64,000 bases of DNA from Akkermansia sp. (GTDB lineage Bacteria > Verrucomicrobiota > Verrucomicrobiia > Limisphaerales > SIBH01): NCBI GenBank assembly GCA_043758205.1, contig JAYVNY010000057.1, positions 1 to 64,000 on the forward strand, given 5' to 3'. The translations under genes were made by a program, and so were the position numbers. Each line of letters starts with the position of its first letter. The first letter of the stretch is position 1. Below are positions 3,192 through 47,900 of this stretch, in pieces. The notes beneath the pieces are model-generated. The model made no database searches and was not told where the DNA came from. It was given only the letters and a program-made list of their open reading frames with translations.

Positions 3192-3655
3192 GCTACGAAG
3201 TGGCTGGTTGGGGCGGCAGTTCCCGGTAGAAGACGGTCGTGCTGCACGGGCCGCCTTGCGGCCAGAGGGCGTAGTTGGGGATCGTGCCGCAACGCTGCCA
3301 GCCGAGGCTGGAAGACAAACGCTCGGCGTCACTGCCGATCACGGTGTCGAGCACGAGCCGGAGCGCGGGCTTTCCAGCCCGCAGCCATGTCCGCCGGCAC
3401 GAAGGCGCAGGAACTTGCGAACACGGTTCTCCATTTCACGTTGCTGCGGACTGGAAAGTCCGCGCTCCGCAGCTTGGCGACGTCGGCGCGGTGGGACTGG
3501 TGGTCGGGCCTGGTCAGGAGGAGTGGCACGGTGCCGACGACGCCGGAAGATTCGTCCTCCGCCACCAGCACGATGCGTTCGCCGCGTGCGGTATGGACTG
3601 CGCCGGCCGAGCGGAGCGGCGACGGCGCTTTCGACCGGGCGAAGATGTGCCTCAC
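3192..3655 (-). pseudogene. Disrupted GNAT-family N-acetyltransferase (frameshift plus in-frame stop)
   Basis: N-terminal frame (ORF 3329..3655) has GNAT-like ..IVLVAEDESSGVVGTVPLLLTRPDHQSHRADVAKL..; C-terminal GNAT motif ..LRLVLDTVIGSDAERLSSSLGWQRCGTIPNYALWPQGGPCSTTVFYREL* is in a different frame (stop at 3192-3194) and a TGA interrupts between them. Confidence 0.4.
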
Positions 3656-3920
3656 GCCAAGTCCGCGAAGCGCGCAAAGGTCAGAACTCCTTTTCCCCCT
3701 TCGCGTCCTTCGCGGACTTGGCGTGAGGCTTCATCCCTTTGGAACTTTTCCGCACGCTCGAAAGCGGTGTCGCCGCTATCGCTCTGCCACCGCAGTCCAA
3801 ATGCGGCGCAGCGCGTCCGCCAACGCCTCGGCCTCGGACGGCTCGTGACGCGTGCGGCGGATGGAAATGGCGGGGGAGTTCATGGAGGTGAGCAGACATT
3901 TAATTGCTCACAATAAAAAA

Positions 3921-7348: not shown

Positions 7349-7422
7349 ATTTGGTGCGCGGAAGTATGCCGGTGCGAAAAACAAATGCAACTGTGCGGGC
7401 GCACTGCTGCGCCCGCCGCACC

Positions 7423-7704
7423 CTAACTCACTGGAATCAACGACACCCGCTCGTTCAAATCATTCCGCGTGATGCCCTGGGCGCGCGGGTCGAGCGTGAG
7501 CACGCCGTCCACCATGAAGGCGTAGCGGTGATGGCCGTGTTTCAACTCCACCGTGATCAGCCAGCCGCCATCCGTCTGCTGCTTGAACGAGTGGGTGTGC
7601 GGATTCCACTGGTTGAAATCACCGACGAGCGTCACCGACTGGGCGGTGGGCGCGACGCAGATGAAATTCATCGAGCGCATCGGCTTCGTGTAAGGCTTGA
7701 GCAT
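7423..7704 (-). CDS. CBM48 / AMPK-beta glycogen-binding (isoamylase N-terminal-like) domain protein
   Basis: 93 aa: ..FICVAPTAQSVTLVGDFNQWNPHTHSFKQQTDGGWLITVELKHGHHRYAFMVDGVLTLDP.. matches E-set/CBM48 fold signature. Confidence 0.65.
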   Translation of the reverse strand: MLKPYTKPMRSMNFICVAPTAQSVTLVGDFNQWNPHTHSFKQQTDGGWLITVELKHGHHRYAFMVDGVLTLDPRAQGITRNDLNERVSLIPVS

Positions 7705-22554: not shown

Positions 22555-23364
22555 TCACTTGCGGCGTGAGAGGTCGGGCATTTTCTTGAAGCGCGCCAAG
22601 GGGTCTTCTTTGGCCGTTGATGTCTGAGTTGCGGACGGCGTGTGAGTGACGGCGCTTGGTGACACGCTCGCCGCAATCTCCGGACTGACCGCCGCGTGCG
22701 CCACTGCGGGCCGCGCTTCAAAGTAAGAACCCTGGCCGAGCAACGTGCCGAAGCTGCTGCCCGCCGGTGCGCTCGCCACGACCGGAGTCACCTTGGCGTG
22801 CGCGGCGGGACTGGCCGGAACCGGCGGTGGCACCATCGCGTGCGTCTCTTGCGGCGCACACCAGCAGAGCCGGACGGTCGGCACCGGTCCCATGTAAATC
22901 GTCAGTTGATGGTACTGCAGATGTTGCAGTCGCACCTTGTCGGACATGTCCTCGGCCTTGAGCAACGCGGTCAGAATGGCGTGAGTCGTCGGGTGGCTGG
23001 CGTTCGCGTCGGCCAGCGAGCGCAGGGTGGAGAAGGAAACATCCGCCACCTTCTCCAGGTGAACGATCAGGCGCTGCGGCACGGCCAGTTCCATTTCCAC
23101 GTTCTCCAAATCGTAGCCTGCCTCGCGAAATGTCCCGGCGCGAGCGTCAATCTCGTGCAACGCGGCCAGCAGCCGTTCCTCGTCGTCCGCGACCAGACCG
23201 TGCGCGGCGTCCTGCACCGTGCGGCGCATCTGGTGCATCTGCCCGGCGGTGGCCAGCACGGCTTCGCGGAGTTCGGCGGCTCGCGCTGGTGCGCTCTCGA
23301 TGACGCTGGCGATCTGCGCCGCCTTCTGCCGCGCGTCCTGCACTTTGGTGATGAATTTTTTCAT
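22555..23364 (-). CDS. Hypothetical protein (helical N-terminal half, Pro/Ala/Thr-rich C-terminal half)
   Basis: 269 aa MKKFITKVQDARQKAAQIASVIESAPARAAELREAV....; no motif recognised. Confidence 0.5.
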   Translation of the reverse strand: MKKFITKVQDARQKAAQIASVIESAPARAAELREAVLATAGQMHQMRRTVQDAAHGLVADDEERLLAALHEIDARAGTFREAGYDLENVEMELAVPQRLIVHLEKVADVSFSTLRSLADANASHPTTHAILTALLKAEDMSDKVRLQHLQYHQLTIYMGPVPTVRLCWCAPQETHAMVPPPVPASPAAHAKVTPVVASAPAGSSFGTLLGQGSYFEARPAVAHAAVSPEIAASVSPSAVTHTPSATQTSTAKEDPLARFKKMPDLSRRK

Positions 23365-23380: not shown

Positions 23381-23415
23381 ACCACGAATGGACACGAATA
23401 AACACGAATGAAAGG
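23381..23415. repeat. Left terminal inverted repeat of 1.6-kb low-GC cassette; contains three CACGAAT direct repeats at ~10-bp spacing
   Basis: accacgaatggacacgaataaacacgaatgaaagg; the first 19 nt (accacgaatggacacgaat) are the exact reverse complement of 24960-24978. Confidence 0.75.
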
Positions 23416-23473
23416 AGCGCCAAACCTCGGAGCACCGGACAGCCTTGTCCGGTGAACGTGCGTGGCGAAGTAA

Positions 23474-23866
23474 GTGACGTTTCTCGCGAGTCGCACGAAC
23501 GACCTAAGCTCAACAACCCGGTGCGCGGGACGCAACGATTGCAATCACGACGCTCTGGTGCTGTTGGGTAATTACCATCGGACGATTCACACCGTTCAAC
23601 GCCCTCAAAACAAGGCGTTTCTCTTGCGAAAGCCGCTTCCGGTCGATCTGGCGTCGTTTGGGGAGCGCTTTCGGGCGGCCCGCATAGCCGGGGGCTACAC
23701 ACAGGCTGAGATGGCGCAGAAATTCGGCGTTTCATTCTCGACGGTGAAGTTCTGGGAACAGGGGCGGACGCAGCCTGTGCCGACCACGCGCTTCCAAGTC
23801 GAAGCCTTCTTGAAAGGACTGCACAGTCGGCTCCGCGAAACTCAATCCAGCAGTCGCGCTCGGTAA
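23474..23866 (+). CDS. XRE-family helix-turn-helix transcriptional regulator (true start probably internal, e.g. TTG ~23622)
   Basis: C-terminal ..FGERFRAARIAGGYTQAEMAQKFGVSFSTVKFWEQGRTQP.. = HTH_XRE; N-terminal 50 aa of the ORF look non-protein-like. Confidence 0.5.
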   Translation: MTFLASRTNDLSSTTRCAGRNDCNHDALVLLGNYHRTIHTVQRPQNKAFLLRKPLPVDLASFGERFRAARIAGGYTQAEMAQKFGVSFSTVKFWEQGRTQPVPTTRFQVEAFLKGLHSRLRETQSSSRAR

Positions 23867-24149
23867 AACTGCATGGGGCCGGACAGATTTGTCTCCGTGA
23901 ATGCCGCCTGTCCCGCGATATTGGTGAGGATGCGGAACGGCACTCAGTTGTTCGGTGGCTGTTTCGTCTCGATAAGATACCGCGCCCCGGTTTGAGGAGG
24001 GCAAGGCGTTGGGGGGTGTTGTTGGACGTAGGCGAGCTTTGCTTCGCTTGAGAAGCGTTCGTAGCTGAGAAGCTATTCCATGCGCCAAATCATTTTTCGT
24101 TGGTGCCACGCGTGCGTTGGTTGGCTTGGATCGTTCAATTGGTTGTGCG

Positions 24150-24731
24150 TCAGGCGGGAACATCGAGTCCGTCAACGGGTTCATCGCGGAGTTCGAGTTT
24201 TTGGACGACCAAGTTCCTCCACTTGCCGCCAATCACTCGTTGTGCCAGAGCTTCGCTAACCACCAGATCCCCAAACTGCGATTCAAATGCGGTTGTGTTC
24301 CCAACGTCACGATTCAGGATGTATCGCTTCCCAATCGTTGAATACCAGATTCGCTGACACTCCGGACAGACGCGGAAAGTTGAACGCTCGTTGCCACGAA
24401 TCAGAATACGTTCTTTCTTCATCAGCGTTACAAATCCTGGAGCTTCCTTTCTATCGGGACCGTAAACTTTTCCCAAAAGCAGGAGATCTTGCGGCCCTTC
24501 AGGAAACAATTCTTGGAGGAAGGAGAGCATCGCAATATGCATGCTGACTCCGTGGACAAAGTTTAGAACCGATTGTTCAGGCCTTGTTTGAAGCACGACA
24601 TCAATCGCCTGACCGGTCACACGTGCCGAACAGCACTCTTTGCAGAGACTTGTTCGTTGAGCTTCCGCAAACCACGCTTTATCGGGTGTTTCCGGGTTAG
24701 AGCTTTTTGAAGTCAGTTCGTAGAAACTCAT
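24150..24731 (-). CDS. Cys-rich hypothetical protein (CxxCC ... CPxC zinc-ribbon-like) in low-GC cassette
   Basis: 193 aa; ..SLCKECCSARV.. and ..FRVCPECQRIWY..; local GC markedly below flanks. Confidence 0.5.
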   Translation of the reverse strand: MSFYELTSKSSNPETPDKAWFAEAQRTSLCKECCSARVTGQAIDVVLQTRPEQSVLNFVHGVSMHIAMLSFLQELFPEGPQDLLLLGKVYGPDRKEAPGFVTLMKKERILIRGNERSTFRVCPECQRIWYSTIGKRYILNRDVGNTTAFESQFGDLVVSEALAQRVIGGKWRNLVVQKLELRDEPVDGLDVPA

Positions 24732-24732
24732 A

Positions 24733-24894
24733 TCAAGGACGATGGGTGAATTTTCCTTCGATGATCATTTGCCATGCTGCTTTGGTCATCTGTGCGACTC
24801 CGCCATGCTCTGCAATCGCGGTCAGAGCGATGCGAACCTGCTCATCGCCGCTGAGTCCGGCGTCGGTGCCTTTGACTGGCTGGAGGGTGGTCAT
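24733..24894 (-). CDS. Small 53-aa ORF immediately upstream of (and 1 nt from) the Cys-rich gene
   Basis: MTTLQPVKGTDAGLSGDEQVRIALTAIAEHGGVAQMTKAAWQMIIEGKFTHRP; stop TGA and downstream ATG arranged as TGATATG; below ORF-track size cut-off. Confidence 0.35.
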   Translation of the reverse strand: MTTLQPVKGTDAGLSGDEQVRIALTAIAEHGGVAQMTKAAWQMIIEGKFTHRP

Positions 24895-24957
24895 GTATGG
24901 ATTGGAGGGACGCGGAGAATGCCTAACAGCGGACCAGACAGTCCGCTGCTCCCTCCT

Positions 24958-24987
24958 CCATTCGTGTCCATTCGTGGTTTCATTTCC
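24958..24987. repeat. Right terminal inverted repeat of low-GC cassette (overlaps stop codon of giant AAA+ gene)
   Basis: ccattcgtgtccattcgtggtttcatttcc; 24960-24978 = reverse complement of 23381-23399. Confidence 0.75.
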
Positions 24988-27900
24988 CCGCCTCCGGTTT
25001 CTGCTCCGTCGAGGCGAGAACTTCGTGGAATTTTTCCAGGAACGCGCGCTCGTTGGTCAACATCTCCTGCGTGAGTTGGATTTCTACCACGCCCTGTTGC
25101 GTGCGGGTCTGGAGCAAGTCCTGCGAGGACTTCAAATGATCGCGCTGCTGCGCCGCGAGATCCTTCAACGTCGCCAGCGTGCTGTGCAGCATTTCCATCT
25201 CGTGCATCAGGCTGCGCATCTGCGAGGGGTCACCGCCGCCGCTTGGTGTGTGAGCAACTTTCTCCTCAATCGAACTTCGCAGCGCATCGAAGCTCTTTCC
25301 GAGCGGCGTGACATCAATCACCACCGGCGCAGGCGTCTGCTGCAACTGTTTCTCCAGCGCGTTCTGGATGCCTTCGAGTCCCTGCTGGAAAGCCGAAAGC
25401 TGCGTCACCACCTGGCCCATCGGGTTCGACTGATCGCCACCGCGCGAGAGCTGATTGCGTTTGAAGGTGCGTTTGATTTCCTCCCAGCGCGTCTTCTCCT
25501 CCGGCGTCAGGAGCGCGAGCATTTCGCGCAGCTTGAGCAGATTCGCCTCCGCGCCCGTCGTGAGTGTCTGCGCCTCGTTCTGGTAGTGATCGAGAATCAG
25601 CGCCTGCACTTCCGCGTCGTTCATGATCGGCACGACCTTTTCCGTGAGGCGGCTCATGTTGCGATAAGAGCCTTGCAGGCGGAACGGCGGTTCGGTGCGG
25701 AACTCGTCGGCCTGGCCGGCGGAGTAAATGTATTCCTGATTCACGCGCAGCAGCACGTCCCGAATTTTCACGAGCTTCTTCAGCACGGCGAGAAGCTCCT
25801 CCACTTCCTGCTGCGAGTAGCTGCCCTCGAACGTCTCCTGATCGCGCGAGCCGCCCGCCGCCAGCCGGATGAAACCGCGCACGTCCTTCTGGCTTTTGTT
25901 CGCGAGCGGCGCGAGCACGGCGTTCGAGGTGACGGCGTTTTCGAGGTAGCTCGCCTTGAACCACTCCGCGCTGCCGCTGGCCATGTCGCCGAGGTTGTAG
26001 GTGTCGGCGCGGTTCGCAAGCATGTCGGGGATTTTGAACTTCTGCCCGCTCTCGGTGTAAGGATTGCCGGCCATCACCACCACGACCTTGCGTCCGCGCA
26101 AATCATACGTCCGCGACTGGCCGCGCCATTGGCCCTCGATCTTGCGCTGGCCGTCGCAGAGCGAAATGAACTTCTGCAAAAACTCCGGGTTGCAATGTTG
26201 GATGTCATCCACGCAGAGCATGATGTTGTCGCCCATCTCCAGCGCGAGATTCAGCTTCTGCACTTCCTCGCGCGCGGCGGCGTTCGGCGCTTCCTGCGGG
26301 TCGAGCGACGTGACGGCGTGGCCGAGGGCCGGCCCGTTGATCTTGATGAAGATGATGCCGAGGCGCACCGCCACGTATTCGAGCAGCGTGGTCTTGCCGT
26401 AACCGGGCGGCGAAATCAGCAGCAACAGGCCCATCAGGTCCGTGCGCTTCTTGTCGCCCGCCGCGCCGATTTGCTTGGCGAGATTGTCGCCCACGAGCGG
26501 GAGGTAAAGCTGATCGACAAGCTGGTTGCGCACGAACGAACCAAGCACGCGCGGTTTGAATTCATGCAGACGGAGGCGCTTGCGTTCCTTTTCCAGCAAC
26601 TGCTGCTTCAACTCGTGAAACTGGTTGAAACGCGGCACCACTTCCTTCTCGAAGGGCAACAGGCGTTTGCGGAAATCCAGGTAATCAAACTGGTAAGTGC
26701 TCTCGCGGATGAGAGCGTGCGAGCCTTTCATCCCGGCGAGTGTTTCCGAAGTCGAAGCGGGCACGACGTGGCGCTTCAAGTCATCACCGCAGAAGAGAAT
26801 CGCGGTGACTTCCTCCAGATATTGCAACTCACCATTGCGCCCAAGCAGGAAGCCGCGCACCCAGTCGCGGATTAAATCAAACTGGCTCTCGGGATGCGCC
26901 GCGAGCGGAGCCAGCGATTCATTGAACTCGTCCTCGCCCGACTTCACCACGAGATGCTGATGGAACGCGGTGGCGAGATTATCCCCCTCCTTGCTCACGA
27001 CGAACGAGTCGCCGCTGACCAGTTCGTGGAAAAGATATTCGCCCGCCTCGTTCGCCAGTTCGCGCGGGAAGAGTTGCGTCTGCTCCACGAAACCGGCGAT
27101 GAGTTTTTGCAGCGCGACGATGTAGGTCTGTTGCGCCGTGTCGCCGGGGAACAGCTTGTTGCGCGCGGAGAAGCCTTTCAGCTTGGCCGTCCAGAGCGTG
27201 CGCGCTTCCGCCGGGCAGAAGCGCACCCAGAAGACCGCCGCCAAAGCGCGCGCGCTGGGTTGATAGCGCGCCAGATGCAGCGCGGCGTGCGTCCGCAACA
27301 GCGCGCGGAGAATGCGCGCCCCATCCACGTCGTGAAGGCCCTTCGTGTAGCCCTCGTGATAGCGCGTCGCGACGAACTCCAGCACCAAGGCCAGCAACGC
27401 GTCGTCCTTCAGTGCGAGCGCGTCATCAATCGTCTTGCCCTGACCGCTCTCCAACAACTGGAGAATGCTGTGCGCGAGATATTCGCCGCGATAGACCTGC
27501 GCATTTTCAGAAACCGCTTCCTGATCCCAGACCGCGCGCGTGGCGAGAAATGCTTCATCCGTGATGGCCTCGAAATACTTCGTGCTGGTGAGATGAATGT
27601 TCGGCACGCCGTCGCGCATCACGACCGTGAGGTCGAGCGGTTGGGTGTTGACGTTAAACTTGTGGCGGCCGAGCTGGATGACGCTCTGGCCGTCCACGAA
27701 CAATTCCTGGCGGTCCTTGAGCTGCCGCACCGCGTCCTGATGCACGCTCTTGAGGCGGCCTTGCAGATCGTCGGCCTTCACCGAATCTTCGAGCGCGAGC
27801 AGTTGCCCGATGGTGTCGCGCACTTTCGCGATCATCAGATCGGACGCCACGTAAGTGTTGATCTCCTCGACCGTCTTGAAGGCTGCGAGGCGGTTCTGAA

Positions 27901-30280
27901 TCGTCTTTAACACGCGCTCTGCCGCCGTCATCAGCGCGCCGGCCTTGCGATTGCGCTGCTCGATTAACGCGACCTTGCGCTGCTCGAACGCCTCGTAAAT
28001 CGAAGTGCGCTTCTCGGAGAGCGGCACGGTGTATTCCTCGAAGTCCGCGAACGCGCCCTCCAGTTCCTCGATCTGAACGCTGATGCGATTGACGTACTCC
28101 TCGCACTTGGCCGGCGAATCGCAGAGGTCGAGGTAGCTCGAGGCCGACTGGCTCAGGAGCTTCATCTGCGCGTTGAACTGCGCCGCGCCTTCCGTCGCGA
28201 CCAGGCTTTGCAGGCGCTTCTTCACCGCCGCCTTCACCTGGTTCAACGTGGAGTAAATGCCCGTGATGCCATCAATGATGCGCGTGGTCTCGGTCGCGTC
28301 CTCGATTTGGAGACCATTGACGATCTCGATCAACATCTCGAGTTCCACGCCGGTGTCGGCGGCGGCCTTCTCAATCTTTTTGCCCTCGGTGGACTTGGAA
28401 ACTTTCTCGACCGAAGCCAACTGCTCGTCCGCCTGCTTCCGGTAGAGATCGAGCGCGGTCGGTTCGAGCAGGAACTTCACGCACCCCTTCGAGAGCGTGT
28501 CCGACTCGGCGGTGACGTGCTTCTCCAGTTCATCAAGCTGCGCGACGTTGACGTAGCGCACTTCCTTGACCGTGATGATCTCGCCGCGCAACTGGCGCAG
28601 CGCCGCGAGATTGCGCACAAAATCATCCAGCGTCTTGAAGCTCGCGCGGCGCACCGTGCGGAAGCGTTCTTCGCAACGCTGCTTCAAATCCCCGACACGC
28701 TGCACGGCCTCGCGCTGGAGACGGCGCACCTTGTCAAATTCGTCCACCGCCTTGTCCGCGACTTCGCGCAACTGCCGGAGCGCGGCGTCAATCTGCAACC
28801 CATCGGGCGTGGTCAACCACGGGAAGGTGTCGAGGATCGCGCCGCTGCGCTTGACCAGATCGGCGTAGAGTTCGGCGTAAGGATTTTCTTTGCCGAGCAG
28901 CGTCAGCACTTCGTTGGCTTCGGCCAGCGCACGCACGACTTCCTTGTTGCCAACTTGATAAAGAAACGTGTCGCGCTGCCCCGCCGGTTCGTGGCCGGGC
29001 TGATAGAACGGCGTCTGCCGCAACTGAATCGAGTGATGTTTCTGCGGTTCGTCATCTGCCCGGAAGAGCAACAGGTGGCCGTCAGGGAACAGCGAGAAGC
29101 CATTGCAAGTGATGCGCTCGTCCACCTTCTGTTGAATCAGCCGGTAGGGCATCAGCACGTATTGCCCACTCTCGTAGTTGTAGAAAACAAAGAGCGTGTC
29201 CTCGCCGTTGGGCGAATTCACCACGCGCTCGATGGTCATCCCCAGTTCGCGGCTCTCGAACTGTTTCAACTCGCCCGTCGCGAGATAATAGCCGTCGGGG
29301 AAAATCAGTCCGTGGTCTTCCGGCAGCAGCACGCACGATTGCCCGAGCGAGTCCACGCGCTGCGCGGTCTGCAACTTCTCGTTGTAGATGAAGTAGCGGC
29401 TGGCGGTTTCCTTGTAGGGCCGGATGCGGAGCAGAATCAGATGACCGATCAGCGCGTAGGCGATTTCCGCGTCATCAACCTTCTGAAACTTGTCATCCAC
29501 CGGCTCGGCGTGAATGCCTTCGCCGGTCTTGGTGTTGTCCTCGATCTTGATCGTCAGGTCGCCGCCCACGCACTCGACGAACACGCGGTCCTCAATCGAG
29601 ACGTGCGGATGATTGCCATAGCGGAACGACTCGCGCGACGGCGTGAGCCAGCGGAATTCATACTGCGGCGGAAAACCCACGCGGCGGAAATCCGTCTCCG
29701 CACGTCCATCGAGATAGCGCAGTTGCCCGCCTTGAAACGCCCACTTGACCACCGCGATGTCGTTCGCGCCCGCGCCGATCTGGAAGACCATGTAGAGGTT
29801 GCCCTCGATCAGCGAAAACTTGCTGAACACCGCGCGGTCATAGACCTGATAGAGCCGTTTGAAGTCGGTGAGGAACTGCTTCTGCTGGAGGACGTCCAGC
29901 GTGCTTTCCTTGAACGCGCCGTCCGCCTCGTCGCGGTGATAAATGGCGAAGACGTCTTCGAGTTTGATTTCCTGCTTCAGTCCAAACTGCACGTTGAAGC
30001 CGAAAAGGAAACGCCCGCGCCCAAGCTGGACCATGTCGCGCGGCATGCAGTTGTGGACGGTGGTGACGCGATCCGATTGCAGCAACTTGAACTCGACGTT
30101 GCCGAACACTTCCTGTCGTCGCGCGTTGAGTTGGTTCACGCGCTCGCGCAACACCGTGGCCTGCGCCTGCAACCGCTGGCGGATGATCTCGTAGGTCGCG
30201 CTGCCGAGCGTGGACGCGGCGGTGGGTGTCGCGGCCGCTTCCGGCGCGGGCGTCGCAGGAGTTGTGGGCGCGTCAGCCAT
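24980..30280 (-). CDS. Giant (~1767 aa from Met at 30278-30280; ORF extends to 30370) uncharacterised protein: N-terminal beta-rich region, long coiled-coil/helical regions, MoxR/AAA_5-like ATPase core near C-terminus
   Basis: Walker A ..LLLISPPGYGKTTLLEYVAVRL.., Walker B ..IMLCVDDIQHCN.., sensor/arginine region ..VVVVMAGNPYTESGQKFKIPDMLANRADTYNL.. (MoxR/AAA_5/McrB-like); N-terminal ..SPNGEDTLFVFYNYESGQYVLMPYRL.. beta repeats. Upstream portion of the ORF (30281-30370) overlaps an imperfect 24-bp inverted repeat so the MADAPTTPA start is preferred. Confidence 0.85.
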   Translation of the reverse strand: MADAPTTPATPAPEAAATPTAASTLGSATYEIIRQRLQAQATVLRERVNQLNARRQEVFGNVEFKLLQSDRVTTVHNCMPRDMVQLGRGRFLFGFNVQFGLKQEIKLEDVFAIYHRDEADGAFKESTLDVLQQKQFLTDFKRLYQVYDRAVFSKFSLIEGNLYMVFQIGAGANDIAVVKWAFQGGQLRYLDGRAETDFRRVGFPPQYEFRWLTPSRESFRYGNHPHVSIEDRVFVECVGGDLTIKIEDNTKTGEGIHAEPVDDKFQKVDDAEIAYALIGHLILLRIRPYKETASRYFIYNEKLQTAQRVDSLGQSCVLLPEDHGLIFPDGYYLATGELKQFESRELGMTIERVVNSPNGEDTLFVFYNYESGQYVLMPYRLIQQKVDERITCNGFSLFPDGHLLLFRADDEPQKHHSIQLRQTPFYQPGHEPAGQRDTFLYQVGNKEVVRALAEANEVLTLLGKENPYAELYADLVKRSGAILDTFPWLTTPDGLQIDAALRQLREVADKAVDEFDKVRRLQREAVQRVGDLKQRCEERFRTVRRASFKTLDDFVRNLAALRQLRGEIITVKEVRYVNVAQLDELEKHVTAESDTLSKGCVKFLLEPTALDLYRKQADEQLASVEKVSKSTEGKKIEKAAADTGVELEMLIEIVNGLQIEDATETTRIIDGITGIYSTLNQVKAAVKKRLQSLVATEGAAQFNAQMKLLSQSASSYLDLCDSPAKCEEYVNRISVQIEELEGAFADFEEYTVPLSEKRTSIYEAFEQRKVALIEQRNRKAGALMTAAERVLKTIQNRLAAFKTVEEINTYVASDLMIAKVRDTIGQLLALEDSVKADDLQGRLKSVHQDAVRQLKDRQELFVDGQSVIQLGRHKFNVNTQPLDLTVVMRDGVPNIHLTSTKYFEAITDEAFLATRAVWDQEAVSENAQVYRGEYLAHSILQLLESGQGKTIDDALALKDDALLALVLEFVATRYHEGYTKGLHDVDGARILRALLRTHAALHLARYQPSARALAAVFWVRFCPAEARTLWTAKLKGFSARNKLFPGDTAQQTYIVALQKLIAGFVEQTQLFPRELANEAGEYLFHELVSGDSFVVSKEGDNLATAFHQHLVVKSGEDEFNESLAPLAAHPESQFDLIRDWVRGFLLGRNGELQYLEEVTAILFCGDDLKRHVVPASTSETLAGMKGSHALIRESTYQFDYLDFRKRLLPFEKEVVPRFNQFHELKQQLLEKERKRLRLHEFKPRVLGSFVRNQLVDQLYLPLVGDNLAKQIGAAGDKKRTDLMGLLLLISPPGYGKTTLLEYVAVRLGIIFIKINGPALGHAVTSLDPQEAPNAAAREEVQKLNLALEMGDNIMLCVDDIQHCNPEFLQKFISLCDGQRKIEGQWRGQSRTYDLRGRKVVVVMAGNPYTESGQKFKIPDMLANRADTYNLGDMASGSAEWFKASYLENAVTSNAVLAPLANKSQKDVRGFIRLAAGGSRDQETFEGSYSQQEVEELLAVLKKLVKIRDVLLRVNQEYIYSAGQADEFRTEPPFRLQGSYRNMSRLTEKVVPIMNDAEVQALILDHYQNEAQTLTTGAEANLLKLREMLALLTPEEKTRWEEIKRTFKRNQLSRGGDQSNPMGQVVTQLSAFQQGLEGIQNALEKQLQQTPAPVVIDVTPLGKSFDALRSSIEEKVAHTPSGGGDPSQMRSLMHEMEMLHSTLATLKDLAAQQRDHLKSSQDLLQTRTQQGVVEIQLTQEMLTNERAFLEKFHEVLASTEQKPEAGK

Positions 30281-30575
30281 GCGGATGAAAACGTGGTCGT
30301 TCAGCCCGGAGGGCTGACAGAAAGTAGCCGGGGGTTGAGCGACAGCGATACCCCCGGTCGCCCCCAACAAACGGACGCGACCCTGAAGGGGTCGCAGAAA
30401 TCATGAAATCATGGCGCGCTTCTTGCACCCCTCCGGGGTGCATTCGATTTCCGTGCGCGGATCCGGGGGTGTCGCTGGCGCTCAACCCCCGGCTACTGTC
30501 TTGCAGCCCTTCAGGCTGCCGCGCAGCACACGTTTGTGCGCTTCTCTGGATTCGCGGCTTCATCGCGTTTCGCAA
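30281..30575 (-). promoter_or_regulatory. Hairpin-dense spacer between flotillin and giant AAA+ genes
   Basis: gcgaccc-tgaa-ggggtcgc (30378-30396), cacccc-tcc-ggggtg (~30426-30440), gcagcc-cttcag-ggctgc (~30505-30521), and 24-bp imperfect IR cagaaagtagccgggggttgagcg / cgctcaacccccggctactgtctg (~30317-30340 / ~30478-30501). Confidence 0.4.
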
Positions 30576-38088: not shown

Positions 38089-38914
38089 GATTTGTCGGCG
38101 CAGTGAATCACCTCCTGTTTCAGCGGGCAAAGGCAAAGGCGGCGGGCGGGACGCCTTTCAAGTCCGTGCGGGAAATCACCGATAGTTTTTCAGCGCGTTC
38201 ACCGCCGTCCGCTGAGCGGTGCGAGGAACAAACATTTATCGAACCCAAATTTCTGCATGAGCACGAACGACAATAAAGCGACCGGAGGAATCGCCATGAG
38301 CTTCGCGACGAAGACGTTGCTGGTCGCGAGCAGCAGACCCAGCCACACCACGCCCACGGTGCAGAGCCAGCAGACGATGACCGTCAATACCTACCGCACC
38401 AGTTCCGCCGCGCGCACCTTCGCCTCCGCGCGGAAGCCCCAGCATTTGGTCAAGGCGTAGTGCGGGGCCGCGCCGAAAAATTTGGCGAGTGATACGGCGA
38501 TGAGCTGGAGAGCGCCTTCGTTTCATTCCTCACGCCCGGTCGGCGCGGGCTGGTTTGGTCTCCGCGCGACCAGGCTCACCCACATGCTTTTGATAGCTGT
38601 TTCGATTTTGACGCGTCTGCCTTGGGCACCGTCGAGGCCTGTCCGTTGCGCCCGATTCGATTAACATAAATCCGAGCCGTCGCCGTTACAGACAACACGC
38701 CGCTGGCGACCAAGAACTTGCCTTCGAGGTTTGCTTGTGATTAAAGATATCAACTCACGAGCTACCAGACGCGGCATTGGCGTGCCGTATTTGCGTCGCT
38801 CGACCAAAACAAACAGCGGTGTTAAGAAGTGCGTCTATGCTCGCCTGTCGTTGGCTTCGGACATTTTTGTCCGAGCCCCGCGAGCGTTCATTTCTGAACT
38901 CATCCCCCAACTCT

Positions 38915-41900
38915 ATGCAAACCATCCGTATCCTTGCCCTTGTGCTGGCCCTCGTCAGCGTATCCCGCGCCGCGTTGCCCACCATTGACACCCAGCCGGC
39001 CAGTTCCACGAACTGTCCCGGTACCACCGCAACTTTCACCGTCACCGCGTCGAGCGATTCCTCCACGAACTACCAATGGTATTTCAATGTGACGAACGCG
39101 GTCGCCGATGCGACGAACGCGAGCTACGCCGTTGTCGGCGTCGCGGCGAGCAATGCCGGCGGTTACTCCGTCGTTGTGGCCAACAACGATGGTTCCGTGA
39201 CCAGTGTGGTCGCGCAACTCGTGGTCAATGTCGCCACTACCGCGAGCGGCCCGGCCAACACCAGTGTGTGCGTGAACGGCACCACCGTGCTGACCACGAC
39301 GCCCGGCGGCACCGGGCCGTTCACCTATGTATGGCGCAAAGACGGGGGCGCGCCGCTGGGTTCTGTGGGTAACACCCACACGATTTCCGGCGCGACGTTG
39401 GGCGATGCGGGGGTGTATTCGGTGGAAGTTTCCGGTTCCTGCAACAGTGTAACCAACAGCGCGACTCTCACGGTGAATCCTCTGCCGTCGGTCGCAGTGA
39501 ACTCGGTCACGGTTTGCTCAAACAACCCCGGCGTGCTGACCGCGACCACGGGCGCGGCCAACCCCGCTTATCTTTGGACGCCCGGCGGCCAGACGACGGC
39601 CAGCGTCACCAACACCCCGATTTCGACGACTGTTTACACCGTCCTCGTGACGGATGGCGTGACGGGTTGCACGAACAGCGGCTCTGGCACGATCACGGTT
39701 CAGCCCCGCACCACGTCCACGGCCCTGGCTAACCAGACCAACTGCCCCGCCAGCAGCATTACCTTCTCCACCACGGCGGGCGGCACCGGGCCGTTCACCT
39801 ACACTTGGCGCAAGAACGGAACTGTGGTGCAGGGGCCGAACGGAACCAGTTCCTACAACATTCCTTCGGCGGTGGCGGCGGACAGCGGCACCTACAGCGT
39901 GGAAACGGCCGGCTCTTGCAACACCGTGACGAACAGTGCCTTCCTCCAAATCATTGCGGCCCCGGTCATCACCACGCAGCCCGCGAACTTCACGACCCCG
40001 ATGGGCAATGGTGCGACCTTCACGGTCGTGGCGACCACAGTGAATTCCACGGTCGGCCCGCTTTCGTACCAATGGCGCACGAACGGTGTGAACGTGACCG
40101 GTGCGACCTCCTCCAGTTTTTCAATCTCGAATGTTTCGCTGAGTCTGAACGGGCTGCAGGTGAGTTGCAGGGTTTCGAGCTGCGGCGGCGTGACCCTGAG
40201 CTCGGCGGCGACCTTGACGATCACGCCAATCACCGGCATTAGCTTCGACTTCAATACCCCCGGCCAATACACGAACGCGCCCTACAACCTCTTCGGCAAC
40301 GATTGGGTCAACACGGCCATCGTCAATGCCCAGCCCTTCGGCCCGATTCTTCCCTTCGAGCAACCCACCGGTGGCGTGGGTGTGGCCACGGGCGGCGGCG
40401 TGCTGGATTTGATCCATAACAACGGTAGCGACCAGACTTCGCTGCTCGTCCCGGTGACGTATGACTTCTCGCTGCCGGGCAAATCCCTCACGGCTTCGAT
40501 CATGATCAAAGTTAAGTTGGGCATCTCTTTGAACCGCGCCACGCAGTTGGGTTTCGTAGCCATCACCAACCTCCCTTCGCTGAACAACACCATGCAGGGC
40601 ATCGCGGCCAACAACGGGCAGGGTTTCATGTCGGTGATTTTGCAGTCCACCGTGACGAATCAATCACCGCCGCTGCTCGGCTATTCCTTGCGGGCTCAGG
40701 TCAAAGCCACCAACGGTACCGTCGCTACCGAGTACCTGCCGGTCAACACCCCGACCAACTCGCTGTCGAGCAACAACTGGTATCGGCTCGTGGCGAAATT
40801 CGTCAACACCCGCACGACCAACTCTTCCGCGGCCACGAACCTCAACACCTTCACCATCGAAGCCACTCTCCAGGATATGGGATCCAATGGTATGATTCCC
40901 GGCCCCATCGTTCTCGCCTACACTCCGATCACCTGCATCAGCAACCTGGATTTCGTGTATCACAACAGCCTGTTCTTCGCCGTGCGCGGCATTGAAACGG
41001 GCGGCGTTGATTATTGGGATAACTTGTTCGTGAGCACTACGCCGGGCAACGTCTTCTTTGTCCAGCAGCCGACTAACACCACCGTGCTCCAGGGCCGTTG
41101 GACGACGCTTTACGCGATGGTGGATGGCGACGGCCCCTACACCTACCAATGGTCGAAGAACGGCACGCCGATTCCCGGCGCGGGCAACTGGAAGTACCAG
41201 ACCCCGCAGGTGACGACCGCCGACAATGGCGCGGTCTATACCGTCACCGTCACCTCCACGAACAACTCCATCACCAGCGCCGGTGCCACCCTGACCGTGA
41301 CTCCTGATACGCTGGATGTGCTCTCCGTCGGTAGCGTGGACGGTGGGTTGATTGGTCTGCGCTTTGACCAGCCGGTCGCCCCGGGTTCGGCGGAAATTGC
41401 GGGCAACTACCTGATCAACGGTACTCCGGCCCTCTCCGCGAAGTTGCGCGTGTTCAATCCCCTGAATCCGATGCAGCAGTTGCGCACGAACCAGACGGAA
41501 GTGCTCCTCGTGCCGGCGTCGCCGGTCGCGGGCAGTTTCACGGTCACGGTTTCCGGTGTCACCTCCATCTCCGGCACGGCGCTCGGGGCGAACAATTCTG
41601 CGGTCGGTTCCGTGCTTGGGTTGACCAGCTTCGATGTGGATCCGCAGGCCATCCGTTTCAGCCGACCGGAAATCAGCGGCGCTCAGGTCAGCACGCTGCC
41701 CGGCTACACCTACAGCTTTGCGCCGAACCAGTTGGAATTGGTCTCCGGCGGCCATGATGTTTTCGGCAACTTTGACGGGTTTCACTTCGCCTACAAACAG
41801 ATCACGGGCGACTTCGACTTGAAGGTGCGCGTGCCCTACGTCGATCTGGTGCGCACGCCGACCAAGGCGGGCTTTGATGCCCGTATCTCGCTGGATGCGG

Positions 41901-44900
41901 ATGCGCCGAACGTGGGCGTGTTCGCCGACCCCGCGCTGCCGGGCCGTAACTTCGCGGAAGCCGGCGCGCGCACGAATTACAATCAGGCCACCGTTTCCTG
42001 GGGTAACAACGCCACGTTGACTTATCCGAACGCTTGGATCCGTTTCCGTCGCGCGGGCAACACCTTCCTGCGCTACTCGAGCACCAACGGCATCTTCTGG
42101 CAGTTCGACGGTCAGTTCAGCCCCAGCAGCCCCGGCAGCCAGGGCATGCAATTCCCCGACACTCTCTTCGTGGGTGTGGCAGGCAACTGTAACGTGGGTG
42201 GCGGCACCATCCAGCAATACGCCGTCTCGCAGTATGACCAGTATGGTGACTTCGCGGGCTATGCGAATGCACTCCTGACCATCGCCGCGCAACCGAATTT
42301 GGGCCAGACGAACGTGGCCGGGAACTCGACCAACCTCAACGGACTCATGGTCACCTTCACCACCAACGGCGTGACCGTGCCAGCGACGCTCGGTGAAATG
42401 GCCTTCATCTGGCAGCGCGCCAATGGACTGGGCGGCTGGACCAACCTGCCGACGGCCGGTCTCACGGCCAGCAACCTCGTCACGGGCGCACTCTTCGGCA
42501 ACGACAACGGCGCGCAATACCGCGCCATCGTCCGCGCCCCCGGTGCCCTGAGCGTGACCAGCGCCGTCGTCACGATGACGGTGATTGATCTGACTCCGCC
42601 CACCGTGGTGTCGGTGCTCATGCCCAGCAATTCGCCCAACCAGGTGATTGTCTATTTCTCGGAGAAGGTGTCGGACGCCACGGCCTTGAACACGGCGAAC
42701 TACCGCCTGACGAACCTGCTCACGGGCGTCACCTACACCATCGCCAGAGCACAATCTTACCTCGGCGACAACCGCACGGTTATCCTGACGATCAACGGCC
42801 CGCTGCCCCCGTCTCCCCGCTATTCGTTGGGTGTCAGCGGAGTGCAGGACCTGGGTGGCCAGACCGTGGCTACCACTGCTCCCAGCTTCGCGATGACCGG
42901 CATGGGTTTGGTGAACTCCGTGGAAGTGGACTACTACGGATCTTTGGCCAACTCGTCTAGCTTGGCGGACCTGACCGGCAACATCAAATTCATCAACAAC
43001 CAGCCGGACTGGATCATGTATAGCAACTCGATGAACATGGGCGGCGGTGCCTTCGCCTTCCCGGCCTCCACTCCGTTGCTGGGTGATAACTACGGCGTGA
43101 AGATGTTCACCTACTTCATTGCGCCCTCCAATTCGCAATACGTGTTCTGGTGGAAGGCGGACGACTACGCCCAATTCTCCATGACCACGAATCCGGCGGC
43201 GACGGGCGGCACGACGAATCCGTTGTTCAAAACCAGTGCGCCCATCTTGACCGCGAACGTCCCGATTTTCACCAACGCCAACACGTTCATCACTCCGCCG
43301 CTGACGGCCGGTCAGGCCTACTACACGGAGTTGTTGTACAAGGAAGGCGGCGGCGGCGACGGCGGCGTGATCTTCGTGACCATGGGCGGCACGACCAATG
43401 CAATTCCGTTGGGCAACTCCATCGCCCCGACTTATCTCTGGTCCTTCCCGGATGCGGTGGCTCGTCCGCCCAAGATGCTCATGGAGTTCTACACCGGCTT
43501 GAACAACGTGGGCCAGGTTGGCCAGTCGGGTAACGGCAACCTGCCGGATCTCCAGTGGGTGACCAACTTCCAGAACGTGGTCGCAGGCACGCCCAACGGC
43601 ATCGGCTACGTGAACATCTCGGGTTACTCGACCAACTTGGGCAACACCAGCTTGGATGCTTACCTGGGCCGTCTCCGCGGCTACTTCCTCCCGCCGACCA
43701 ACGGCAACTACCGCTTCTACACGCGCTCGGATGACTCCTGCGAGTTCTACATGAACACCAACGCGGTCAACAGCACCGACCCGGCGGGCCGGAGCTTCCT
43801 GCGCGCCCAGTTCGCCTTCACGAACATCACCCAACTCTGGCAGACACCTGTCGTCACCCTCACCGGAGGCCAGCTCTACTATATTGAAGGCATCTTCCGC
43901 GAAGGCGCGGGCGGCGACGGTATGACCATCGCGGTGAGCGGCGGCGATGAGCCGGCTCCGACGGGCGGCTTGGATTTGATTCCGCAGAGCATGTTGGTCT
44001 TCCCGACCAATCTGGATCGCGTGGGTCCCGTCAACTTCAACCAGGCTGGTAGCGCCGGTGGCTTGGCCCCGATGAACCCGACTGTGACCGACGGTCAGAA
44101 AATCACCTTCCAAGCTCGCGGCCTCGCTGGCTCCGCTCCGTATCTCGGCTTCATCTTCGCCAAGAACGGCGTGCAGATGCAGAGCTGCCCGACGGTCACC
44201 TACCCGGCGAATGCACCCTATTTCTGGGTCAGCCCACCCTTCACCGCTGCGGATAACGGCGCGGTCATCACCCTCACCGTGACGAACTATTTCAGCAGCG
44301 TCACCGTGACGAGCATCGTGACGGTCCTGGCCGACAACACGGCCCCGACCATTGTCAGTGCCGTGAGTTCGCAGTACGGCGGGCAGGTGTTGATCACCTT
44401 CAGCGAGAATGTTGATTCCACCACGGCCACTCGCGCGGGCAACTACAGCATCCCCGGCCTGACGGTGTATGCGGCGTGGCGTGATGACGTGAACCCGAAC
44501 CGCGTGAGCTTGCAGACCAGCCCGCAGACGCCGGGCACGACCTACACCGTAACGATCAACGGTGTGAAAGATCTGTCCACCGGTGGCAATGCCATGTCCG
44601 GGGCATCCAAGAGCTTCACCACCTGGGGCTTCGGCGGTTTGGGCACGGCGTACGTGGAAATCTTCACGAACATCGCCAGCACCAGTCCGGACTTCTTCTT
44701 CAACGACCCGAAGGGCGTGTACAACATGCCGGACATCTCTTACTACACGAACACGTTCTCGATCAGCCAGTTCGGGGCGCATGGCGGCTTGGAATTCTAC
44801 GCCGGCCGCGTGAGCGGCCTGTTCATGCCCCCGAGCAATGGACTCTATCAGTTCTATGTCCGCGGTGACGACGGCACGCGTCTCTACATGAACACCAACG

Positions 44901-47900
44901 GCCCCGCGCCCGCCGACAAGGTGCTGGTCGCCCGTAACGATGGTGCCAACTCCGGCCCGGTGGGTGCGAGCAGCGGCTACATCACGGGCACGGCCAACGG
45001 CCGCGTGGGCAATAGCGCCACCCCGGTGCTCTCGCTCACCAACGGCACCCCCTACTATCTGGAAGGCATCATGAAAGAAGGCGGCGGCGGCGACTATCTC
45101 ATGGTGGTGATGCGCGCCCTCGATCCGCTCACCTTGCTGCCCATCGGCGGTCTCCCGCTGACTCCGGCGGCGACCGACGTGGTTTCTGGCGGCTTCTTCC
45201 AGGCCACGGGCAACCCGGACATCAACCAGTTGGTCGTCATCTCGGCTCCGCCCACGGAGTTGACGGTGTTCGAGAATGATCTGGTGAATTTGGAGTTGGT
45301 CGCCAACGCGATTCCTCCTTCGCTCACGCCCTACATCACCTATCAGTGGCAGCGCACCAATGATGGCTCCGGCACCTTCACCAACATCCCGAACGCGACC
45401 ACGGCGAGCTACAGCTTCTACGCCAGCCTCAGCGATGACAGCACGCACTACCGCCTGCGCGCCACCATCCCTGGCCAGACCGTCTTCTTCTCGACGCTAC
45501 TGCATGTGCTGGTGGACACGGTGCCGCCTTACATTGTCTCCGTCAGCGCCCGCACCCCGATTAACGGCAAGCAACTGGTCGGACTGGCTTGGGACGGTCC
45601 GACGGATCCCGGCATCGCCACTGACCCGTCGGGCTATTACGCGGTTGACGAGTTCTCCACCACGGTCAACTTCGTCACGGTGCAGTATCGCCCCGGCTTT
45701 CCTAACCAATTACTCCTCCAGGTGGATGAGACGAGCGGCATCCTGATCGGCAACTTCACCATCTATCGCGACTTCATGCAGGATCGCGCGGCGGTGCCGA
45801 ACCCGGCGTTCAACCTCACGGCCACCGGCGCGGTGCAGCGCCTGAGCGAGCAAATCGTCGGCACCATCGGCAGCATTGCCGCCGGCGGCTACAACGCCAA
45901 CGCGCCCGGCCTCGGCTTCGTCGGCCTGGCCACCCCCACGGAAATGTTCACGGTCACGAACGCGGGCTGGGATGTCTCGGCCAACGGCTGGGACATTTGG
46001 AATAATGCGGACGGGTTCCTCTTCGGCCATCGCGAAGTGACCGGCAATTTCGACATCAAGACCCGCCTCCAGAAATTCACCGGCGCGGATCAATGGTCCA
46101 AGGCCGGACTCATGGTGCGGCCGAGCACGAACAGCAACAGCCGCATGTTCTTCATGGGCACCACGCCCCGCACCACGCCCATTGCCGGCCAGGTCCCGAA
46201 CAACTTCTTCGCCGCCCAGTACCGTGACCTTGACGGTGGCGCTCCGGGCAATGTGCAAAACGCCGTCCCGCCCGGTTACCCGAACGCCTGGGTCCGCCTC
46301 CAGCGCAGCAACTCGGTGTTCTACGGTTACTGGAGCACCAACGGCACGGACTGGAACGTCCTGTTCTCGCGCGACTTCTCCGGCACCATTGCCGGTGGCT
46401 TCCCGGACACGGTGCTGGTGGGCTTGGGCACGTGCTCACATGACCAGACCCGCAGTCTGGCCAACAATGCCTACGTCGAGTATCGCAATCTCTACTTCCC
46501 GAACGGCGCGGTCATTCTCACCCAGCCGGAACCGGCCTTCGTCGAGGTCGGCATCCACCAGAGCGTGACCTTCTCGAACCTCACCGCCTCCGGTGCCGGC
46601 GTCCGCTACCAATGGCGTCTCAACGGCGCGGCCATCACCGATGCCACCAACGCCTCGCTCACGTTGCCCAACACGGCCGTCGGCCAGTCCGGCATCTACA
46701 CGGTGGCCGCTTACACCGACGGCGGCGGCCAGATCAGCTCGAACGTGGTCCTTTCCGTGACCAACGTCCTGCCGACCGTTGTCAATGATTCGCTCACGGC
46801 GACCCAGGGCATGGTGCGCACGTTCCCGGCTTCGTTCCTCCTTGCGAACGACAGCGACTTCGAACTCGATCCGCTCTCGGTGCTCTCCGTGTTCTATCCG
46901 CATACCCTCGCCACGAACTTCGATGGCGGCGCGTTCAGCGGCTCGGTCATGTATGGCAACGCCACGAACGTGTCCACGGGCGGCACAGGTGATTCCGGTC
47001 GCATCCGCCTGAACGACGCGCTGGCCTCCCAAGCTGGCTCGGTCGTCTTCAACGAGGTGACGCCCGGTGCGCGTGTGTTGGCGTTCCGCGCCGCGTTCAA
47101 CCTGCGTATCGCCGAAGGCAGCGCGGAACCGGCTGACGGTTTCAGCTTCAACTTCGCGGGTGACCTGCCGAATGCGGCGACGGGCGCGCGGGCGTCGGAA
47201 GATGGCCTTGGCAGCGGCTTCAGCTTCTGCGTGGACAATTACCGCTTCCTGCCCTTCGTGGGCGTCGGTGCCGCCGCCGGCAGCGGAGCCAGCACCACGG
47301 CCAACACTTCCGGTATGAAGGTGAATTACGGCAACATCGTTCGCGCTGGTGTCCAGGCTCCGACCTGGAACAACACGGCCTACATCCCGGTGGACATCAC
47401 GCTGGAATCGAACGGTCGCCTCACCGTGCTGGTCAATGGCACCAACGTCTTCGGCACTTTCACCATCCCGTGGGTGCCGCAGGCGGGCCGCTTCGGCTTC
47501 TTCGCCCGCACCGGCGGCCAGTTGGAGTCACACTCAATTGATGATCTGAACATCAGCTACATCGCTGAGGACACGCAGCGAGGTGGCCTGCTCACCTACA
47601 CCAACGGCGTCGTGGCCTACAGCCCCCCGTCCATCGGTTGCGGACTTGACAGGTTCTTCTACATCGCCAGCGACGGTCAGGTCGGCGGCACCAACGTCGG
47701 CACCGTCACCGTCAACATCGTTAGTTCCAATGCGCCGGTGATTGTGAGTTGCGCGGCCAACCAGACCTACTACGTGAGCGGAGGTTGCACGGTCAACCTG
47801 CCCAACCTCACCGGTGGCTTGGTGGTCACTGACTGTGGCACCTACACCATCACGCAAAGCCCGGCGGCCGGAACCGCGCTCGGCTTGGGCAATACCATCG

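Follow-up and report, generated by a model that had tools for sequence, protein, structure and literature searches.

A probable integron-type cassette in a dispersed, REP-like palindrome at the end of an ATPase gene of an Akkermansia sp. genome

This work concerns a segment of about 1.6 kb in an Akkermansia sp. genome (Verrucomicrobiota), which is bounded by an inverted 19-mer and separates the gene for a giant ATPase from the next gene of its operon, here called p269. The window referred to throughout is the whole stretch of 64,000 nucleotides that was analysed (contig JAYVNY010000057.1, positions 1 to 64,000). We propose that the segment has two parts of different age, namely the arms of an older palindrome that is widely dispersed in bacterial genomes, and a cargo that probably arrived as an integron-type cassette. 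The features of the locus are listed in the order of their coordinates.

22555-23364, minus strand: p269, downstream gene of the operon, 269 aa, no known family; follows the ATPase gene directly in orthologous loci
23381-23409, plus strand: left arm of the palindrome (p269 side), three decamers ACCACGAAT-GGACACGAAT-AAACACGAAT, of the same 29-mer type as 212 arrays found in genomes
23410-23499: inner frame on the p269 side, from the alignment with sister lineages, with the hairpin CACCGGACAGCCTTGTCCGGTG (23433-23454) and, at its end, TTCG (23496-23499) that would derive from the target
23500-24926, minus strand: inserted cassette of probable integron type, 1427 nt, 54.3% G+C, delimited by its junctions and by homology to cassette arrays
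23500-23569, minus strand: attC-like site, termed attC', with R''-like ACCCAAC, a centre, L' GGGTTGTTGAGCTTAGGTC and the G of R' (covariance model and alignment)
23558-23866, plus strand: XRE/YiaG-like helix-turn-helix (HTH) regulator, 102 aa, HTH_3 and HTH_31 above cut-offs, on the opposite strand to the other cassette genes
24150-24731, minus strand: p193, 193 aa, putative RHS immunity protein (homologues are positioned after RHS toxin genes)
24733-24894, minus strand: p53, open reading frame (ORF) of 53 aa, putative orphan RHS toxin tip, with TGA-T-ATG before the 193-aa gene
24927-24959: inner frame on the ATPase side, with the hairpin CAGCGGAC-N6-GTCCGCTG (24927-24948) and a purine-rich stretch
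24960-24978, minus strand: right arm (ATPase side), two decamers, of which sister lineages have kept three (sequence and sister comparison)
24980-30370, minus strand: giant DUF3686/DUF7902/AAA ATPase, upstream gene of the operon, 1796 aa as listed (domain matches and orthologous loci)

The insertion and its palindromic frame

The 19-mer ACCACGAATGGACACGAAT at 23381-23399 (plus strand) is the exact reverse complement of 24960-24978, and these are its only two matches in the window when up to 3 mismatches are allowed (chance expectation 0.01). CACGAAT units follow each other at 10-nt spacing, three times in the left arm (23381-23409) and twice in the right one. The left arm has its outer end 16 nt upstream of the start codon of p269, and a single nucleotide separates the right repeat from the stop codon of the giant gene (TCA at 24980-24982; TGA-A-ACCACG on the minus strand). 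A flotillin-like gene is located further upstream of the ATPase gene. Relatives of p269 that have a taxonomic name assign the lineage to Verrucomicrobiota. The G+C content is 54.3% in the insert and 50.0% in the 193-aa gene, compared to 62.3% in the whole window. No transposase or tyrosine recombinase is encoded in the segment or anywhere in the 64-kb window. A comparison with Rfam gave no relevant match, either for the region (E-value mode) or for the whole window (gathering thresholds), and no tRNAs were found in a scan of the window. A first-pass annotation of this DNA had pointed out the perfect repeat, its units, its proximity to the stop codon, the lower G+C content and the lack of a transposase, all of which we confirm. 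It had also suggested, as one possibility, a non-autonomous mobile cassette with the 19-bp repeats as its ends. The mobility is supported by our data, but the ends lie elsewhere.

That the segment is a genuine insertion at the 3' end of the ATPase gene, as had been claimed, is borne out by 43 metagenomic loci with genes related to the C-terminal part of the ATPase. A p269 homologue follows the ATPase gene directly in about 35 of them, with a gap of about 10-480 nt, and none of the 43 encodes homologues of the XRE, 193-aa and 53-aa proteins. At orthologous loci, the flotillin, DUF3686 ATPase and p269 genes form a conserved operon without the segment. The closest relatives, L124 and L191, have about 90% identity in the DNA of the ATPase gene. 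In both, the corresponding site has these arms and also the two sub-terminal hairpins, but the cargo that they enclose is another one, of about 0.3 kb, which encodes an 85-aa membrane-type ORF. The frame common to the window and to both sister lineages comprises 23381-23495 (about 93% identity) and about 24923-24978. Since the frame is the same and the cargo different, the palindrome is presumably older than the cargo, and the cargo is exchangeable. The elements in L191 (2346-2826) and L124 (7204-7684), both of 481 nt, are 99.8% identical, far above the 89-93% identity of the flanking ATPase and p269 genes, which indicates a recent lateral exchange of the element.

The 19-bp repeats are not the cassette's own ends. 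They belong to a presumably older palindrome that is dispersed over at least 120 genome loci, and the same arms surround other cargo in the sister lineages. The boundaries of the cassette are instead situated inside the repeats, by 52 and 119 nt, and are marked by G↓TT cores (the arrow marks the crossover) and an attC-like site. Of the searches that the first-pass annotation had suggested, the one for further copies of the ends shows that they are not private to the cassette, and the one for a target-site duplication found none at the locus.

The frame itself contains a short reading frame. On the minus strand, a 26-codon ORF (24895-24969) starts from an ATG inside the array (MDTNGGGSSGLSGPLLGILRVPPIHT and stop), crosses the hairpin, and at its end overlaps, by ATGA, with the start of the 53-aa ORF. 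An analogous array-start ORF in L124 ends 4 nt before the ATG of the cargo. These ORFs may serve translational coupling through the frame.

Integron-type anatomy of the cargo

Read on the minus strand, the cargo starts with TTAGGC (24926 downward) and ends with GCTTAGGTCG (G at 23500). The junctions with the frame are GCTG↓TTAGGC at 24927/24926 and GGTCG↓TTCGTG at 23500/23499, both at a G↓TT. The G at 24927 (minus strand), which is the G of the crossover, lies at the 3' foot of the ATPase-side hairpin, and the boundary GTCCGCTG↓TTAGGC is identical to the R' core of the cassette arrays described below. When the two ends of the cassette are joined, they give GGTC-GTTAGGC (...GCTTAGGTC-GTTAGGC), the canonical L'-R' of these arrays, and a complete R' core is restored. 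The reconstructed target, GCTG↓TTCGTG, is located at the 3' foot of the inner hairpin and contains the minimal GWT/GTT motif.

The arrays were found through homologues of the XRE protein (71-85% identity), which head runs of small, co-oriented ORFs that are split by 93-nt direct repeats. The repeats have the form GCCTAAC-...-GTTAGGC, in agreement with the R'' (RYYYAAC) and R' (GTTRRRY) consensus, and combine a 7-bp R''/R' stem with an L''/L' stem that is broken by unpaired bases and with a variable centre. Judged by these features, the repeats have the anatomy of attC sites, which is complete in the sites of L186, L188 and L189. Multi-cassette arrays headed by the XRE gene together with attC' are present in L186, L188/L190 and L189 and consist of 3 to about 11 cassettes. 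Each XRE gene in these arrays is adjoined by a shorter, diverged attC-like site (ACCCAAC...GGGTC-GTTAGGC).

In the window, attC' lies opposite the first XRE codons and overlaps them. Its identity to the XRE-adjacent sites of L186, L188 and L189 is about 85% up to ...GGTC-GTT and is lost immediately afterwards, where the frame follows in the window, and the next cassette in the arrays. A covariance model trained on 13 full attC sites matches the window at 23493-23583 (minus strand; 23.7 bits, E about 0.0015), with a 5' half that pairs poorly, and gives 31-35 bits for the equivalent XRE-adjacent sites elsewhere.

In the sister lineage L124, too, the cargo has its start at this G↓TT (G↓TTAGAA). 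Its end reads GATTAAC-CATGCGCTGC, in which 13 nt (AACCATGCGCTGC) are identical to the 5' end of a canonical attC. This end is made up of an R''-like box and the first ten bases of a canonical L'', joined to the frame at a TGC microhomology, and is consistent with a deletion of most of the attC. IntI can excise attG-inserted cassettes imprecisely (Loot et al., 10.1101/2022.09.11.507474), and the sister-lineage attC, truncated between short direct repeats, resembles such an imprecise loss.

The loci L186 and L190 run from a toxin through an immunity-type gene, XRE (opposite strand) and attC' to the cassette array, and the end of such a locus is collinear with the cargo in the window. The XRE stop codon of L190 overlaps with a G↓TTAGGT core, and XRE and attC' therefore make up a stand-alone, reversed cassette in that locus. 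Hence the larger unit in the window probably arose by fusion. At the end of the L190 array, there are PDDEXK_1 and RadC genes as well as three tandem XerC/D-like recombinases. As a separate observation, the attC arrays in L186 (1-6270), L190 (1-20300) and L189 (1-1700) have an opposite-strand XRE gene and not intI at their head, and two of them directly follow a polymorphic toxin with an immunity-type gene, in one case in the order RHS-147aa-CotH, in the other as a 5393-aa protein followed by an Ank-repeat protein.

Genes of the cargo

The predictions of an XRE regulator on the plus strand and of a coupled pair of genes on the minus strand, in which the TGA of the 53-aa ORF lies one base before the ATG of a cysteine-rich 193-aa protein, hold on closer inspection. 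Alignment with homologues places the XRE start better at the GTG at 23558, and the protein has weak NCBIfam similarity to the HipB, MqsA and Y4mF types. PADLOC reports only a generic HTH for the cassette.

The p193 family is small (18 clusters) and has four invariant cysteines, C30, C33, C122 and C125, but no Pfam, NCBIfam or PADLOC family matches it. An AlphaFold model built with the 18 homologues has a pLDDT of 42, too poor for fold comparison. In L170 and L172-L174, p193 homologues abut or overlap the end of RHS-repeat genes, one of which has a product of 3268 aa, and the RHS core TIGR03696 is above the NCBIfam cut-off in those RHS proteins. From this position directly after RHS toxins, p193 is a probable immunity protein, cognate to the C-terminal toxin domain of an RHS protein.

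The last 15-18 or so residues of p53 (MTKAAWQMIIEGKFT) are identical in 12 of 15 positions to the C-terminal end of the RHS protein of 3268 aa that L172 encodes. Going by this match, the end of p53 is a remnant of the extreme C-terminus of an RHS toxin. A similar remnant is present in L167 and L169 in a non-coding form. The RHS C-terminal toxin domain has no Pfam family match, and no cognate toxin is encoded in the window, where the giant 3293-aa ORF is an Ig/HYR/PA14 surface protein.

The p53-p193 pair has what is expected of orphan tip and immunity modules of RHS and other polymorphic toxins, namely an immunity gene whose homologues are positioned after the toxin domain, and a toxin-tip remnant directly upstream of, and coupled to, the orphan copy. 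Tandem paralogues, as in such modules, occur in L167 and L169. Unlike in known orphan modules, there is no adjoining rhs gene, and the module now sits in an unrelated operon, to which it was displaced as part of an integron-type cassette. Also unlike in described polymorphic-toxin families, neither the toxin domain nor p193 matches any of them, and the immunity function of p193 is putative, from its position.

The decamer-array repeat

The 19-mer is part of an array of three decamer units, AACCACGAAT-GGACACGAAT-nnACACGAAT, of which it makes up the outer two-thirds. In a scan with one genome per species, the exact 19-mer was present in at least 120 genome loci, compared to about 4 expected by chance. 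All array counts given here derive from these loci, among the matches listed. Most of the loci, among the matches listed, belong to Verrucomicrobiota. The other hosts are Planctomycetota, Kiritimatiellota, Acidobacteriota, Armatimonadota, Hydrogenedentota, Nitrosomonas and further groups, and closed chromosomes are included. The 120 loci listed (L004-L123) contain 212 arrays, 124 of which form 62 convergent pairs with spacers of 8-948 nt, mostly below 130 nt. Short elements of this kind fold into near-perfect hairpins of 28-30 bp (-46 to -72 kcal/mol, z about -10). The stop codon of a long ORF is found from -6 to +15 nt of the outer end of 20.6% of the arrays, compared to 3.2% of random positions, an enrichment of about 6-fold.

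In some genomes, the arrays are the basis of multi-copy families that resemble miniature inverted-repeat transposable elements (MITEs), as for L025, L036 and L058 in one metagenome-assembled genome. MITE-like, array-ended elements of about 390 nt occur in Acidobacteriota. In the Logan assemblies of two samples, contigs stop at the left array of our locus (L001 and L002 at window position 23381, L003 at 23410) with a 30-nt (k-1) overlap, the assembly-graph signature of a multi-copy sequence. A typical array element has no match in plasmid and phage collections (cultured), and the 19-mer is found on only 11 contigs of IMG/VR. On a phage-like contig of IMG/VR (L179, 1183-3060), array palindromes are situated between the terminase stop codon and the ribosome binding site of the portal gene, and a further one lies between the portal gene and the next head (head-morphogenesis) gene. 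The heptamer variants CACGGAT, CACTAAT and CACCAAT tend to change together in all units of one array. We considered whether arrays are, as a general rule, RNA pairing elements under selection, and rejected this, as the arms of the L012 and L120 pairs differ without compensation.

Clustering of the ORFs on both sides, inward and outward, of 87 unpaired arrays did not reveal a protein family that recurs beside them. Some convergent arrays bracket whole genes exactly, namely GxxExxY/PDDEXK_3 nuclease-like genes in L069 (1781-2211) and L013 (315-746), and a 318-aa ORF without family match in L064 (942-1947). Those in L114 (278-445) bracket a decayed GxxExxY remnant. The GxxExxY ORFs are in frame with an ATG inside the array (MDTN...). 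The arrays that bracket genes leave no room for an attC, which implies a different mechanism of capture. A literature search for 'GxxExxY' found nothing relevant.

With repetitive extragenic palindromic (REP) sequences, their assemblies (bacterial interspersed mosaic elements, BIMEs, and REP doublets forming hairpins, REPINs) and MITEs, the array elements share short inverted arms that give stable hairpins, an intergenic location, typically right after stop codons and inside operons, and several copies per genome with family-specific spacers. They also occasionally bracket a gene, as REPs flank the genes of REP-associated tyrosine transposases (RAYTs). They differ in that the arms consist of three tandem decamers and that the elements lack target-site duplications. 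In contrast to REPs, which are normally species-specific, the identical 19-mer spans many phyla, and neither a RAYT (IS200/IS605-like) nor another associated enzyme was found beside the arrays. No paper was found in the searchable literature with the sequence strings of the repeat. The cross-phylum repeat is thus the least explained part of the locus, and potentially the most novel.

Several other palindromes built from tandem units were seen. In the distant orthologue L147, an independent decamer array (7407-7445) overlaps the stop codon of the giant ATPase (TGAACCACGAAT), with no p269 downstream. Another palindrome family, with tandem units of the CGCGAAGG type, is present at 3649-3729 of the window and at 7431-7631 of L136, where it occupies the same ATPase-p269 gap as the decamer-array element does in the window. 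A perfect 25-nt inverted repeat at 53172-53244 of the window, with two tandem ATTCGTCTGCC(CCA) units, is a cousin of the CACGAAT arrays. In L170 (6820-7275), a 23S_rRNA_IVP gene, which encodes a four-helix bundle, lies between inverted arrays of AATTAAGAG-type tandem units, a further case of a small ORF framed by inverted tandem-repeat arrays.

Origin of the segment

In our view, the locus is best explained by the insertion of an integron-type cassette at an attG-like GTT site in a REP-like palindrome, the arms of which were split by the event, and we consider this explanation probable. The ancestor of the lineage and of its sisters L124 and L191 would have had a REP/MITE-like palindrome of about 170 nt in the ATPase-p269 spacer, with inverted three-unit decamer arms, each followed by a small GC hairpin, and with an uninterrupted junction GCTG-TTCGTGCGACTCG. 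A circular integron-type cassette would then have recombined via its attC, presumably with the help of an IntI-type integrase, with the GTT at the foot of the inner hairpin (GCTG↓TTCGTG). The recombination would have separated the arms by 1.56 kb and generated the junctions G↓TTAGGC...cassette...GGTCG↓TTCGTG. The load would have comprised the 53-aa toxin-tip remnant, coupled to the 193-aa probable immunity protein, the opposite-strand XRE gene, and the attC-like site of the latter. A likely benefit to the host would be protection against the RHS toxin of a neighbour.

Recchia and Hall reportedly described in the 1990s that cassettes from integrons can insert outside attI at secondary sites. 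Insertion of cassettes by IntI at genomic 5'-GWT-3' sites, termed attG, has been shown experimentally (Loot et al., 10.1101/2022.09.11.507474), and integration at secondary sites has been discussed as one source of isolated attC clusters (attC-site clusters without integron integrases, CALINs) (Cury et al. 2016, PMC4889954). The cargo in the window resembles attG and secondary-site cassettes in having ORFs followed by an attC-like imperfect palindrome, G↓TT at both junctions, ends that give GTTAGGC when joined, and a minimal GTT (GWT) target. As with CALINs, there is no integrase nearby, and as with integron cassettes in general, the same attC type and XRE module recur in multi-cassette arrays elsewhere. 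There are also differences. Most integrons have been studied in Proteobacteria, whereas the host is here a member of the Verrucomicrobiota. Compared to usual cassettes, the one in the window is large (1.4 kb, three ORFs, one of them reversed), probably as a result of fusion, and its attC has probably decayed. Unlike known secondary sites, the landing site lies inside an operon, in the centre of a REP-like hairpin. Finally, the arrays of this attC family differ from known integrons in being headed by XRE genes, and in one case in ending with three XerC/D-like recombinases. The locus thus combines known kinds of element in a new combination and in a new host group.

Several observations weigh against insertion of an integron-type cassette. 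Neither an integron integrase nor any other tyrosine recombinase is encoded in the 64-kb window, and the three recombinases of L190 are XerC/D-like and not IntI (41-88 bits with TIGR02249, for which the cut-off is 265). The target GTTCGTG fits only the minimal GTT/GWT rule. The single-stranded fold of attC' has an energy of -13.7 kcal/mol (z -1.8), compared to -26.2 for the canonical sites, and two generic palindromes in the window score higher than attC' with the covariance model. The attC' in the window has probably decayed. No attC is detectable between p193 and XRE, so that the unit must be either fused or an unusually large cassette. An empty copy of the palindrome subfamily was not found, as a search with GCTGTTCGTGCG over all loci gave unrelated matches only. 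Furthermore, no attC of this family occurs near the decamer arrays in 100 other array-bearing loci, so that a general attraction of this attC family by the arrays is not supported. The targeting of the palindrome may therefore be a coincidence.

Among the alternatives, one is an entry that did not involve an integron, either by breakage of the hairpin at replication and illegitimate end-joining, or by homologous exchange via the dispersed repeats. The GTT and attC features would then merely have come with the DNA of the donor locus. Perfect palindromes of great length are fragile and prone to recombination, the element has evidently been swapped as a block between L191 and L124, and the weak attC' and the lack of a detected IntI are compatible with such an origin. 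We nevertheless regard it as unlikely, because both junctions are exactly at a G↓TT, a precision not expected from end-joining, and the joined ends give the canonical L'-R' core. Moreover, the homology to the array sites stops precisely at the crossover, and a second cargo with attC sequence, that of L124, starts at this very G↓TT. By a small step less probable still is that the whole 1.6-kb unit is a non-autonomous transposon or a cargo-carrying MITE with 19-bp termini, mobilized by a transposase that acts in trans and binds to the CACGAAT arrays. The spacing of the units by one helical turn is reminiscent of multi-site transposon ends. The multi-copy MITE-like families that end in arrays, the few array pairs that exactly bracket genes, and the high identity of the L191 and L124 elements relative to their flanks would also fit. 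However, a transposon of this kind should not have the same arms at the same site around different cargo in sister lineages, nor cargo boundaries well inside the arms at G↓TT and attC features. Target-site duplications are missing, no family of proteins is found repeatedly on the inward side of the 87 unpaired arrays, and a second copy of this cargo with the arms was not found.

The suggestion of the first-pass annotation that the cargo could be a toxin-antitoxin (TA) or defence-like module is correct insofar as the cargo is related to toxin and immunity systems. A self-contained TA or defence module, with XRE as antitoxin or repressor acting on CACGAAT operators and the 193-aa cysteine-rich protein as effector, is very unlikely. 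XRE/YiaG-type HTH proteins are common antitoxins, in line with the weak NCBIfam similarities of XRE, and symmetric arrays could in principle be operators. However, there are no CACGAAT arrays near XRE homologues elsewhere, and the arrays occur in hundreds of places, overwhelmingly without any XRE gene, which speaks against the operator role that had been considered. The XRE (plus strand) and p193 (minus strand) genes are convergent, 283 nt apart and not co-transcribed, and so do not form a classical type II TA operon. There is no match to a toxin family, PADLOC detects nothing beyond the generic HTH, and the p193 homologues are found in the immunity position after RHS toxins.

If insertion of an integron-type cassette is the correct explanation, the locus would be a natural example, from outside the Proteobacteria, of the capture of such a cassette at a genomic site that is not an att site, and the cassette content would differ between sister lineages at the same G↓TT. 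It would also link integron-style cassette traffic to immunity against polymorphic toxins, and suggest a route for the spread of orphan immunity genes. The hairpin repeat, for its part, is without description in the searchable literature, and a 19-nt core that is identical in many phyla is not usual among REP-like elements. A much more speculative extension, to which we assign a low probability, is that decamer-array palindromes are a class of structured DNA elements that spreads horizontally across phyla and provides distributed landing pads for small mobile genes. These would be integron-type cassettes at the present locus, replaced by one another at a single G↓TT in three sister lineages, and GxxExxY PD-(D/E)XK nuclease genes elsewhere. 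The palindromes would then be an integrase-less 'mini-integron' platform that extends over the genome and is serviced in trans, and XRE-headed attC arrays at polymorphic-toxin loci would be banks of immunity cassettes. More generally, the locus is a caution that perfect inverted repeats around a block of genes need not be the block's own ends.

Other features of the window

About a dozen other long hairpin palindromes are present in the window, one of them within the flotillin-ATPase gap. A large palindrome around the start of the giant ATPase gene (30302-30518), in and adjoining this gap, has 56-nt arms with 88% complementarity and a 105-nt spacer. Together with the array element, it places hairpin elements at both junctions of the operon. 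The 3293-aa ORF at 38777-48658 (plus strand), with Ig, HYR and PA14/GLEYA domains, probably encodes a giant surface adhesin that is unrelated to the cassette.

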